From: Spirochaetia bacterium
GTDB lineage: Bacteria; Spirochaetota; Spirochaetia; CADAEX01
Direction of reading: 5' to 3'
Length of the DNA: 64,000 nt
NCBI GenBank assembly: GCA_045606105.1
Contig: JAZURI010000011.1
Span: forward strand, 64,001 to 128,000
In this document: in pieces, positions 3-2,589 of the stretch
How positions within the stretch are numbered: the stretch's first letter is position 1
Layout: every line of letters begins with the position of its first letter
Made by a program: the position numbers and the translations under genes
Notes under the pieces: generated by a model
Database searches by the model: none
What the model was told of the DNA's origin: nothing
The model's input: only the letters and a program-made list of their open reading frames with translations

Positions 3-464
3 AGGGACAAGTTCCTTACAGATACAAAGGGAACAGGAATAATGAACTCCTATTTCACAGGCTACGGAGAATACAAGGGTGACTTTGCCTCAAGACTGAC
101 AGGCTCATTGGTAGCAGACAGAAGCGGAGAGGCAGTGGCTTACGGAATCTTCAACCTGGAGCCGAGAGGAAAGATGTTCATTGTACCGGGAGATCCGGTT
201 TACGAAGGAATGATCGTAGGAGAACACAACAGGGAATATGACCTTTACCTGAACCCGACAAAAACCAAGCAGCTTTCAAACATGAGAGCCTCAGGAAAGG
301 ACACCAACGTTATCCTTACACCGGTGCTTCCCATGACACCGGAAAGAGCCCTGAACCTGATCCGGGATGACGAGCTGGTGGAAATAACTCCCCTTTCGGT
401 ACGACTCAGAAAAAAGATCCTGAGCCGTCTTGAAAGAAAAAAGACTGAACGCTTCGAGGATTAA
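3..464 (+). CDS. typA: Translational GTPase TypA/BipA, C-terminal part (5'-truncated by window edge)
   Basis: Frame is open from position 3 (RDKFLTDTKGTGIM...). Motifs VYEGMIVGEHNR, KQLSNMRASG and DELVEITPLSVRLRK are typical of the BipA C-terminal domain. Confidence 0.95.
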   Translation, partial: RDKFLTDTKGTGIMNSYFTGYGEYKGDFASRLTGSLVADRSGEAVAYGIFNLEPRGKMFIVPGDPVYEGMIVGEHNREYDLYLNPTKTKQLSNMRASGKDTNVILTPVLPMTPERALNLIRDDELVEITPLSVRLRKKILSRLERKKTERFED

Positions 465-2362
465 CCCTTTTTAACAGACCTGTATTTCCTGAGCCTGAGA
501 GCATTGGTCACCACCGACAGGGATGATAACGACATGGCTGCGGCTGCCAGCATAGGATTGAGAAGGATTCCTGTAAAGGGATACAGGATACCGGCAGCAA
601 TGGGAAGCCCCAGCACATTGTAGCCGAATGCCCAGATAAGGTTCTGCTTGATATTGCCCATGACATGGCGGCTCAGGTTAACAGCCTCGCTTACTCCTCT
701 GATATCGTCACTTACAAGAACTATGTGGGCCAGATCCTTGGTACAGTCGGCCCCGGCACCCACAGCAATGCTGACATCAGCTTCAGCCATGGCTACCGCA
801 TCGTTTATACCGTCTCCTGCCATTGCAATGACAGAATTGTCCTTTTTCCATTTTTTCAGTCTGGAAGCCTTGTCCTCAGGCAGCATTGAGGCATGGAATT
901 CCTCTATACCCACCTGCTCTGAAACAACGGCTGCACTTTTCCTGTTGTCCCCTGTAAGAAGAACCGGCTTGATTCCGTGCTCCTTCAGCCATTCCACAGC
1001 TTCACGGCTTTCAGGCTTGACCACATCGGAAAGAGCTATTATTCCGGCAAATCTTGAATCCACAGCCACATAGATAAGGGTCTTGCCCTGGTTATAGAGC
1101 GCCTCTTCTCCCTTGAAGCTGATTTTTACCTTGTTTTCCTCCAGGAAGCCCCGGTTTCCTACCAGAAGACTTTTTTCTCCGGCATTACATCTGATTCCCT
1201 TACCGGTAACCGAATTGAAATGGGATACCTGATACGGAGTTATATTCTTTTCCGAGGCATGGTTCACCACTGCACTTCCCAGGGGATGCTCCGAGTCCTT
1301 TTCCGCCCCTGCAGCCAGGGCCAGAAACTCGTTTTTATCCATTCCGTCGGTTATGATATCGGTAACAAAAGGCTTTCCCTTTGTCAGGGTACCGGTCTTG
1401 TCAAAGGCAACAGTTCTGACAGATGACAGGGTTTCGAATACTGCGGCATTCTTGAAAAGGAGTCCCAGCTCGGAGCCGCGGCCTATTCCTGTAATTACAG
1501 CCACCGGAGTAGCCAGACCGAGAGAGCATGGGCAGGCCATTACCAGAACCGAAACAAAAATCCTTACTACAAAATCTATTTCTTTTCCGACAAAGAACCA
1601 TATTCCGGCTGCAACCAGGGCAAAGGCCATAACAGCAACGGTAAACCAGCCCGATACCTTGTCGGCCAGACGGGCAATTTCAGGCTTGGAGCTCTGGGCC
1701 TTTTCCACCATGGAAATGATACCGGCCAGAACTGTGTCCCGCCCTACCTTTTCGGCACGGAAACGGAAACTTCCATTAAGGTTTATGGTTCCTCCGATAA
1801 CCTTTTCACCCGGCTTTTTCTCCACCGGCATGCTTTCTCCGGTAAGAAGAGCCTCGTCCACATGGGAGAAGCCCTCGGTTACCACACCGTCAACAGCGAT
1901 TCTGTTTCCCGGCTTCACAACCACTATATCTCCGGGAAAAATATCGTAGGAAAAAACCTCGGTTTCAACACTTCCCCTGAGAACCGTAACCTTGTCGGGA
2001 ATAAGGTCGGTAAGCTTCCGGAGTGCATCACCGGTTCTGGCTACCGAAACGCTTTCAAGATACTTTCCGAACATCACCAGGGTAATGATTACCGCCACAC
2101 TGTCGAAATAACCGTAGAAAAAGGAGGCCGTGGTACTGACAGCCACAAGACTGTCCATATTAGGTGAAAAGCGGAGAAGATTTCTGTAGCCTTTGATATA
2201 GAAGCTCCTCCCGATAATCATTACGGGAACAGCTAAAAGAAACGAAAAGATTTTTACCATATTTCCGGGAAGATCCAGAAACATGGAACTCATTGAAAGA
2301 AGGAAAAGGGGAACCGTAAAAAGAAAAACTGAAACAAGCCTTGTTTTAGCCTGCTTCAGTTC
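461..2362 (-). CDS. copA: Cu(I)-type P1B ATPase body; probably completed N-terminally by the HMA ORF via a -1 shift
   Basis: TGES, CPC, DKTGTLT, SEHPL, GDGIND, YN and MSLSS motifs. The frame stays open upstream of the Met at 2293 to 2362 (ELKQAKTRLVSVFLFTVPLFLLSM, the first TM helix). Confidence 0.93.
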   Translation of the reverse strand, partial: ELKQAKTRLVSVFLFTVPLFLLSMSSMFLDLPGNMVKIFSFLLAVPVMIIGRSFYIKGYRNLLRFSPNMDSLVAVSTTASFFYGYFDSVAVIITLVMFGKYLESVSVARTGDALRKLTDLIPDKVTVLRGSVETEVFSYDIFPGDIVVVKPGNRIAVDGVVTEGFSHVDEALLTGESMPVEKKPGEKVIGGTINLNGSFRFRAEKVGRDTVLAGIISMVEKAQSSKPEIARLADKVSGWFTVAVMAFALVAAGIWFFVGKEIDFVVRIFVSVLVMACPCSLGLATPVAVITGIGRGSELGLLFKNAAVFETLSSVRTVAFDKTGTLTKGKPFVTDIITDGMDKNEFLALAAGAEKDSEHPLGSAVVNHASEKNITPYQVSHFNSVTGKGIRCNAGEKSLLVGNRGFLEENKVKISFKGEEALYNQGKTLIYVAVDSRFAGIIALSDVVKPESREAVEWLKEHGIKPVLLTGDNRKSAAVVSEQVGIEEFHASMLPEDKASRLKKWKKDNSVIAMAGDGINDAVAMAEADVSIAVGAGADCTKDLAHIVLVSDDIRGVSEAVNLSRHVMGNIKQNLIWAFGYNVLGLPIAAGILYPFTGILLNPMLAAAAMSLSSLSVVTNALRLRKYRSVKKG

Positions 2363-2379
2363 TTTTTTTTTTCACCCTC
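2318..2379 (-). promoter_or_regulatory. Candidate -1 frameshift cassette: SD-like GAGGGT, A10 / A-AAA-AAG slippery site, 14-bp hairpin, U-tract
   Basis: Minus strand reads GAG GGT GAA AAA AAA AAG AAC TGA. Stem AACUGAAGCAGGCU (2361-2348) pairs with GGCUUGUUUCAGUU (2340-2327) using 3 G-U pairs, 7-nt loop, then UUUCUUUUU. Confidence 0.65.
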
Positions 2380-2589
2380 TATATCTTCGACAACAGTAAA
2401 GCCTGCTGCCTCAATAGTTTCGCGGAACTTGTCCACAGAAACTTTTTTTTCATTATATTCTATTTCTGCCTTTGCAGCTGCAAGATTAACCGAAACCGAT
2501 ATAACTCCATCAAGTTTACCAAGTACCCTTTCACAAGCCGAAGAACATCCGGCACAACGCATTCCTGCAATCTGCAATGTAGTTTTCAT
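2356..2589 (-). CDS. copZ: Heavy-metal-associated (HMA) domain / CopZ-like copper chaperone
   Basis: GMRCAGC metal-binding motif; 77 aa with ferredoxin-like HMA pattern; ends GEKKKN-TGA after an A10 run. Confidence 0.9.
   Translation of the reverse strand: MKTTLQIAGMRCAGCSSACERVLGKLDGVISVSVNLAAAKAEIEYNEKKVSVDKFRETIEAAGFTVVEDIEGEKKKN

Follow-up and report, generated by a model that had tools for sequence, protein, structure and literature searches.

Organization of the copZ/copA locus

The copper-handling locus described here lies in a 64,000-nucleotide stretch of DNA (the window), which covers positions 64,001 to 128,000 of contig JAZURI010000011.1 in the Spirochaetia bacterium assembly GCA_045606105.1. 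The genome of the window (G000) amounts to 1.46 Mb in 11 contigs, is 99% complete and has a GC content of 46%. Two open reading frames (ORFs), one for a small CopZ-like protein with an HMA domain and one for a CopA-type copper pump, meet at a run of ten A residues (A10), the pump being in the -1 frame relative to the HMA frame. All coordinates given for this locus are window positions, and all of its features are on the minus strand. An initial annotation of the window, made from the sequence alone, had proposed that the two ORFs are joined by a programmed -1 frameshift.

The zero-frame HMA ORF (2356..2589) encodes 77 amino acids, carries the motif GMRCAGC and matches Pfam PF00403 with an E-value of 9.2e-17. 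Its 3′ end reads GAG GGT GAA AAA AAA AAG AAC TGA, giving the C-terminus ...EGEKKKN directly followed by the TGA stop. The A10 run, which is the proposed slippage site, occupies 2363..2372, and the heptamer A_AAA_AAG at 2362..2368 is in phase with the HMA frame; a further heptamer, A_AAA_AAA, is contained in the A10 one codon upstream of A_AAA_AAG. Direct reading of the sequence thus bears out the initial description of a 77-aa HMA ORF ending in A10 with an in-phase slippery heptamer.

The CopA frame (461..2371) reads ...KKKELKQAKTRLVSVFLFTVPLFLLSMSSM... at the junction and is open for 636 codons, with its stop codon at 461-463 and its first ATG at 2293. It contains the E1-E2_ATPase (PF00122, E = 9.1e-57) and HAD Hydrolase (PF00702, E = 3.8e-34) domains, and its closest solved structures are Legionella CopA (3RFU, E = 9.5e-144) followed by 7R0G and 3J08 (both at 1e-135), with Archaeoglobus CopA among the best relatives. 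The Cu(I) P1B-1 ATPases are defined, after Argüello, by DKTGT, by CPC in M4, by N-x6-YN-x4-P in M5 and by M-x2-SS in M6. The corresponding signature residues are readable in the -1 frame as FDKTGTLT, MACPCSLG, NLIWAFGYNVLGLP and AAMSLSSLS, and the frame is predicted to encode a complete copper P1B-type ATPase core.

The stretch between A10 and the first AUG of the -1 frame (2294..2362) encodes MA (RLVSVFLFTVPLFLLS), the first membrane helix, preceded by the linker ELKQAK. In an alignment with in-frame CopAs, these approximately 23-24 codons (ELKQAKTRLVSVFLFTVPLFLLS) match the linker and the MA helix, and they also align to LpCopA (3RFU) from residue 84 onward. The stop-free -1 frame that had been noticed at first, continuous with CopA and supplying the first transmembrane helix, is therefore confirmed by both the length of the frame and these alignments. 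Upstream, the -1 frame is bounded by a TGA whose last base is the first A of the A10, and direct inspection from this TGA to ATG 2293 found no ATG, GTG or TTG. The 25 nt upstream of ATG 2293 are pyrimidine-rich and hold no Shine-Dalgarno (SD) sequence, as the initial annotation had stated. The two frames can be fused by one additional A in the mRNA or by a -1 slip of the ribosome at A10, and a complete pump with its MA helix is predicted to be attainable only through one of these two events. Likewise, the CxxC-bearing HMA domain (GMRCAGC) sits in the neighbouring frame and would belong to the same polypeptide as the pump only if recoding occurs. It is the sole HMA match in G000, CopA is the sole P-type ATPase of this 99% complete genome, and a search of G000 for the CsoR family gave no match.

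Upstream of the HMA ORF, glnA is separated from the HMA start by 78 nt (2590-2667), which hold a terminator-like hairpin of glnA with a T9 tail (2650-2616). Promoter prediction for the minus strand gave no sigma-70-like hit in the same interval. Transcription of copZ/copA may proceed by read-through from glnA.

The frame break in metagenomes and relatives

Twenty public sequencing runs from 8 studies contain all or part of the stretch, and their records describe gut, faeces or sheep metagenomes. Four of these runs, from four different studies, were compared by means of their Logan contigs: X1, X5 and X9 are DNA runs from three studies, and X13 is an Illumina RNA metatranscriptome library. In each of them a single contig crosses the run, and the A10 is kept in all four with no indel at this place. 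The contigs carry 3-10 substitutions each with respect to the window, so they represent related strains and are not copies of the window assembly. The contig from the RNA library ends at 2461, within the HMA ORF, and leaves the rest of that ORF uncovered. Since contigs reflect the majority form at the expense of minority variants, and DNA may be present in an RNA library, the result describes the majority genomic form; at this level the choice between A10 and A11 that the initial annotation had raised falls on A10, with no A11 seen. An assembly error at A10 is ruled out by the four runs together with three further assemblies (G005, G001 and L189, see below) that also have A10. Altogether, none of the 8 copA instances has an A11 or A9 allele at the consensus level.

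Among 40 relatives, the two closest CopAs come from two other species of the same genus, G005 (81% identical, 641 codons open) and G001 (57%, 645 codons). Both have a 77-aa HMA ORF ending in ...GAA AAA AAA AAG AGC/AAC TGA, that is, with the same A10 and with the pump in the -1 frame. The arrangement was found once more in a distant metagenome contig, L189 (L189:1256-3636), whose CopA is 43% identical and whose HMA ORF ends in CAA AAA AAA AAG AAA TAA; here too the run is A10 and the -1 frame holds the pump. The A_AAA_AAG heptamer has the identical phase in all of them. Judged from its sequence, the L189 case probably represents an independent origin of the same arrangement, seen in a single assembly.

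A frame test with tblastn on 186 loci with a match to the CopA N-terminus found the HMA domain in frame in 162, no HMA nearby in 15 and a shifted frame in 9 rows (G000 three times, G005 and G001 twice each, L189 and L083). The longest A-run in the linker measures 0-9 in all 162 in-frame loci, while A10 always coincides with a shifted frame. The break in L083 (L083:924-3156), from a Trichococcus metagenome-assembled genome (MAG), is of another kind: it lies between MB and M1, with an apparent internal deletion and frame change and no homopolymer, and is an ordinary pseudogene or a misassembly, unlike the A10 cases.

In a collection of 5.8 billion proteins, the 4 closest clusters (at least 56% identity, 536-614 aa) all come without an HMA domain, and one of them bears an NCBI name from a Spirochaetia bacterium MAG; at 51% identity or below, the HMA domain is in frame in nearly all proteins among the matches listed. 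The search for related loci in genome and metagenome contigs found none nearer than 50% identity, apart from the architecture of L189; the family is represented by just 20 genomes in the genome set searched. Two CopA calls from other lineages (P0070 and P0090, 49% identical, 637-639 aa) lack the HMA domain and start with MPLPN..., just past the MA helix. They possibly represent additional copA genes that are split or frameshifted.

Synonymous sites are saturated among the three species of the genus, with synonymous divergence (dS) of 1.2-3.0. Over the same comparisons, the ratio of nonsynonymous to synonymous divergence (dN/dS) of CopA is 0.11-0.16. The corresponding ratio of differences (pN/pS) is 0.16-0.25 for the HMA ORF and 0.27-0.41 for the approximately 24 codons between A10 and the first Met. 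Such low ratios at saturated dS imply that the break is old and that both parts are under selection, including the stretch without a start codon. A decaying pseudogene is ruled out by dN/dS of 0.11-0.16 at dS above 1. The frame break is thus ancient and maintained by selection in the three species, and it recurs in one distant contig.

Long homopolymer runs and parallel frame breaks in the genome

The proportion of A/T runs in G000 that lie inside long open frames falls with their length, from 55% at length 5 to 48% at length 6, 40% at length 7 and 27% at length 8. Among runs of at least 9 it drops to none (0/52, compared with 52/195 at length 8; Fisher p = 1.4e-6). In many bacteria, a cut-off at nine is described as a sign that transcriptional slippage is selected against (PMC1088944). 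The sharp cut-off in G000 fits such selection against slippage-prone tracts.

The A10 of copA is one of four A/T runs of length 10 in the 1.46-Mb genome and the only one of the four at an ORF break. When all runs of at least 9 are considered, three are located at ORF breaks, namely in copA, in an LCP gene and at a prophage junction, and all three need a -1 correction. Candidate breaks at A8 runs were also inspected and turned out to be ordinary gene ends or intergenic runs.

At the LCP site (G000 C2:176701-176709), an A9 run separates a 391-codon ORF with a membrane helix from a LytR_cpsA_psr ORF in the -1 frame, which has no start codon ahead of its domain. The break reads GTA AAA AAA AAC TGA, its -1 reading is KKKLN..., and all 9 genomes of the genus share it. 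In six genomes that do not belong to the genus, the two halves are fused as one ORF of 673-769 codons; outside the genus, the junction carries A10-A12 tracts. Over 20 loci, 14 are in the -1 state, 3 are in frame and 3 are not resolvable, with none at a +1 offset; these counts describe lineages whose members are non-independent relatives and do not amount to a statistical test. The -1 loci are the 9 of the genus together with G017 (A12), G022 (A10), G013 (A11), G040 (A10) and G016 (A10), and the in-frame ones are G018 (A12), G010 (A11) and G032 (no run). In its A9-C form the LCP site lacks an AAG, and no strong structure is predicted downstream of it (L200, z = -1.56).

At the third break (G000 C1:69727-69735), in a prophage, an A9 run is preceded by a Mu-type portal ORF (416 codons) and followed, in the -1 frame, by a Mu-F-like ORF of 493 codons with a weak CdiA_C-like tail and no Met in frame for about 90 codons. 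This site may be a third slippage-dependent junction or just a pair of adjacent genes.

Hairpin, SD-like motif and tRNA genes around the A10 run

The initial annotation had likened the site to the E. coli dnaX cassette, with an SD-like GAGGGT upstream and a 14-bp stem beginning on the next base. Both elements are present in G000; on closer examination, however, the stem comprises 16-17 pairs, and its beginning falls within the final heptamer codon. The hairpin (2324..2364) is followed by a T-rich tail, resembles an intrinsic terminator and folds with a z-score of -4.5, none of 200 shuffled sequences folding as well. It is strong in G000 only, the z-scores at the corresponding places being -0.07 in G005, -1.1 in G001 and -0.65 in L189. 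A terminator pattern was likewise called at the hairpin in G000 alone, and not in G001, G005 or L189. RNAalifold applied to the alignment returned a positive covariation term (+1.89), which lends no support to conservation of the hairpin. As for the GAGGGT motif (2374..2379), its counterparts in the other three lineages are GAAGGC, GAAGAA and GATTTT. The comparison of orthologues thus retains the broken frame, the A10 and the heptamer in G005, G001 and L189, but neither the hairpin nor the SD-like motif.

The tRNA complement of G000 (ARAGORN, 39 tRNA genes found) includes both tRNA-Lys(UUU) and tRNA-Lys(CUU). In dnaX-type slippage on AAG, according to PMC5009743, a single tRNA-Lys(UUU) reads AAG weakly, and the presence of both tRNAs is linked there to polymerase slippage in Thermus rather than to frameshifting on A_AAA_AAG. 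Of the features that make up a dnaX-type cassette, an in-phase heptamer is therefore present, as it trivially is for any in-phase run of at least nine, whereas a conserved SD sequence with a conserved stem-loop 5-8 nt downstream and a single tRNA-Lys(UUU) are not. With a weak hairpin and an altered GAGGGT in G005, G001 and L189 and with two tRNA-Lys genes, we set the dnaX-type cassette aside.

The hairpin of G000 may be an optional local extra, acting either as a pause or barrier for the ribosome or as a partial terminator through which short copZ transcripts become enriched. A route by way of short transcripts is named in the title of Drees 2017.

Proposed slippage at the A10 run and alternative explanations

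We consider it probable that copZ and copA are one gene read in two ways, in which the out-of-frame state is selected and a shift at A10, most likely by slippage of RNA polymerase, yields the pump. Standard decoding of the A10 would produce the 77-aa soluble CopZ-like chaperone, with the TGA stop two codons past the run, and a minority of expression events would shift frame at the A10. Most likely, RNA polymerase would slip on the A10/T10 hybrid and give rise to an A11 mRNA, with ribosomal -1 slippage on A_AAA_AAA/G as a possible second contributor. Either kind of slippage would lead to the identical fusion of roughly 712 aa, in which the HMA domain is joined through GEKKKELKQAK to the MA helix and then to the full CopA pump, and the ratio of chaperone over pump would be set from one transcript. 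That slippage takes place, how efficient it is and which machine slips we infer from the sequence context described above. The initial proposal of a chaperone made by default and a pump made by recoding agrees with a zero frame that ends as a CopZ-like domain and with a complete pump that needs a -1 shift or an extra A; the dnaX-type mode proposed along with it does not hold up.

The locus shows sequence features expected of programmed transcriptional slippage: a homopolymer of at least 9 is located at the ORF junction, one inserted base restores the single ORF of the homologues, and different species share both the break and the run, with each ORF under purifying selection. We favour the polymerase over the ribosome because conservation extends over the whole 9-10-nt run rather than being confined to a 7-nt heptamer, because the hairpin and the SD-like motif are specific to G000, because the LCP site does without AAG or a marked fold, because two tRNA-Lys genes are present, as in Thermus, and because runs of at least 9 are purged from ORFs genome-wide.

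Several points nevertheless weigh against this explanation. Any run of at least 9 A residues holds an in-phase slippery heptamer, and because an extra A in the mRNA and a -1 slip of the ribosome give the same protein, sequence alone cannot separate polymerase from ribosome. The hairpin of G000 (z = -4.5), whose inner part of about 10 bp lies about 6 nt past the heptamer, fits a ribosomal stimulator. The CTG at the CTGA found in all three species could serve for re-initiation of a CopA without metal-binding domain. In addition, the clade with the copA break is small, with 3 species and 1 contig, and the only RNA data are contigs whose majority form is A10 and which are possibly derived from DNA.

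Programmed ribosomal -1 frameshifting of the dnaX type, in which the mRNA stays A10 and the ribosome slips on A_AAA_AAG under stimulation by GAGGGT and the hairpin, seems to us unlikely, if the least so of the alternatives. All four lineages have the heptamer in phase, but this phase follows automatically from the K-K-K-E linker and offers no independent support. G000 does have a strong hairpin at the slip site and a GAGG just upstream; in G005, G001 and L189, however, the SD and hairpin are absent or weak, and even in G000 about 3 nt separate the GAGG from the run, compared with about 10 nt in dnaX. The A10 in the contig of the RNA library is as this mechanism predicts. On the other hand, tRNA-Lys(CUU) should hold AAG tightly, following PMC5009743, and a second conserved site, the A9-C of the LCP gene, has neither an AAG nor a strong fold (z = -1.56). 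We regard as quite improbable an arrangement of two ordinary cistrons, in which copZ ends at the TGA and CopA initiates at the CTG or at Met 2293 as a pump without metal-binding domain. Several CopAs can transport without their N-terminal metal-binding domains, the CTG overlaps the HMA stop as CTGA in G000, G005 and G001 (ATAA in L189), and gene callers already split the locus in this way. However, neither start has an SD sequence, CTG starts are very inefficient, and a start at Met 2293 removes the conserved MA helix. Two cistrons also leave unexplained why A10 is exactly conserved across saturated synonymous divergence, and the analogous reading of the LCP site leaves the LCP domain without the membrane anchor that the upstream ORF carries; in other genera a single ORF comprises both halves.

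The explanations that involve no recoding at all, namely a sequencing error in the homopolymer, a pseudogene in decay or a phase-variable ON/OFF tract at the DNA level, are in our opinion very improbable. It is true that long A-runs are prone to error and mutation, and that the LCP tract varies in length between genera (A9-A12), with in-frame and -1 states both occurring. Against an error stands the A10 in the MAG, in the four runs from four studies with strain-level single-nucleotide polymorphisms and in the three further assemblies, and against decay stand the dN/dS values of 0.11-0.16 at dS above 1. The absence of A11 and A9 from all 8 copA instances argues against ON/OFF switching at the consensus level, contigs being apt to hide minority alleles.

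Beyond copA, it is conceivable, with the odds slightly against it, that this gut Spirochaetia lineage uses slippage on A9-A12 tracts as a regular, selected device, which would provide a fixed excess of chaperone in the case of copper and truncated versus full-length forms in the case of the LCP wall enzyme. It is just as tentative a suggestion that, with such a device, the out-of-frame state would be actively retained against in-frame alleles, which must arise frequently.

Practical consequences would follow for annotation. Pipelines annotate the locus as a stand-alone HMA protein and an N-terminally truncated "cadmium-translocating ATPase", and the LCP gene as two ORFs. If slippage is confirmed, conserved breaks at runs of at least 9 A in MAGs should not be dismissed as errors or pseudogenes. 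The absence of A/T runs of at least 9 from ORFs, combined with three -1 breaks, would then provide a genomic signature for slippage-dependent genes in uncultured bacteria.

Comparison with known recoding systems

The frameshifting of E. coli copA that gives CopA(Z) is reportedly the subject of Meydan 2017 and Drees 2017. In E. coli, a -1 shift out of the intact pump frame leads to CopA(Z) (PMC5009743, PMC9548414, PMC7558416), and the likeness to the present locus is that a single locus serves a chaperone of about 70 aa, corresponding to the first metal-binding domain, as well as the pump, with a -1 event where the HMA domain ends. The polarity, as the initial annotation had noted, is opposite: the zero frame of E. 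coli is the pump and the shift gives the chaperone, whereas here the zero frame ends after 77 aa as the chaperone and the shift would give the pump. The two also differ in their signals, which in E. coli are a slippery sequence, a pseudoknot and the nascent chain (PMC7558416) and here an A10 with no conserved structure. If the lineage does use slippage as a selected device, this would be the first copZ/copA with a polarity opposite to E. coli. Confirmation would mean that the solution of a chaperone and a pump from one gene has evolved at least 2 times, with opposite polarity and by a different mechanism, and this twofold evolution would support the chaperone-to-pump ratio as a selected trait.

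The literature examined yielded no report of a copZ stop with copA in -1 or of transcriptional slippage in copA, within a scope that excluded Meydan 2017 and the supplements (including the 9A/9T tables of PMC1088944), and no relevant report of transcriptional slippage in spirochaetes was found. On the evidence of sequence and conservation, we regard the locus as a well-supported, conserved recoding candidate.

Closer in mechanism is dnaX of Thermus thermophilus, where transcriptional slippage occurs on an A9 (PMC5009743, PMC1088944). A homopolymer of at least 9, two products per gene and two tRNA-Lys genes are found there as here. There are also 'reversed' dnaX genes, in which the zero-frame stop comes right after the site and the long product tau needs the shift (PMC5009743), and in both respects the copA locus resembles them. 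The differences from T. thermophilus are that another gene family is concerned, that the long product of Thermus is the zero-frame one and that slippage at copA is deduced from the sequence. In Shigella mxiE and in ORF fusions of insertion sequence (IS) elements, PMC1088944 and PMC5009743 likewise describe a fusion that arises only after homopolymer slippage has joined overlapping ORFs. Those are regulator and transposase genes, while here a metal pump and its chaperone would be joined.

In Blochmannia and Buchnera, conserved poly(A) frameshifts are rescued by transcriptional slippage (PMC3017870). As in our case, frameshifts in A-tracts of at least 9 are kept between species without gene decay, and several genes per genome are concerned. 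However, those genomes belong to intracellular bacteria and are AT-rich, more than 100 long tracts are found in their genes, and their frameshifts are seen in that account as tolerated damage. The present genome has 46% GC and is known from gut and faeces metagenomes, tracts of at least 9 are purged from its ORFs (0/52), and the truncated product is a functional domain. If slippage is such a regular device here, the lineage would also be an example of homopolymer frameshifts that are programmed, and not merely tolerated, outside intracellular endosymbionts and without extreme AT bias.

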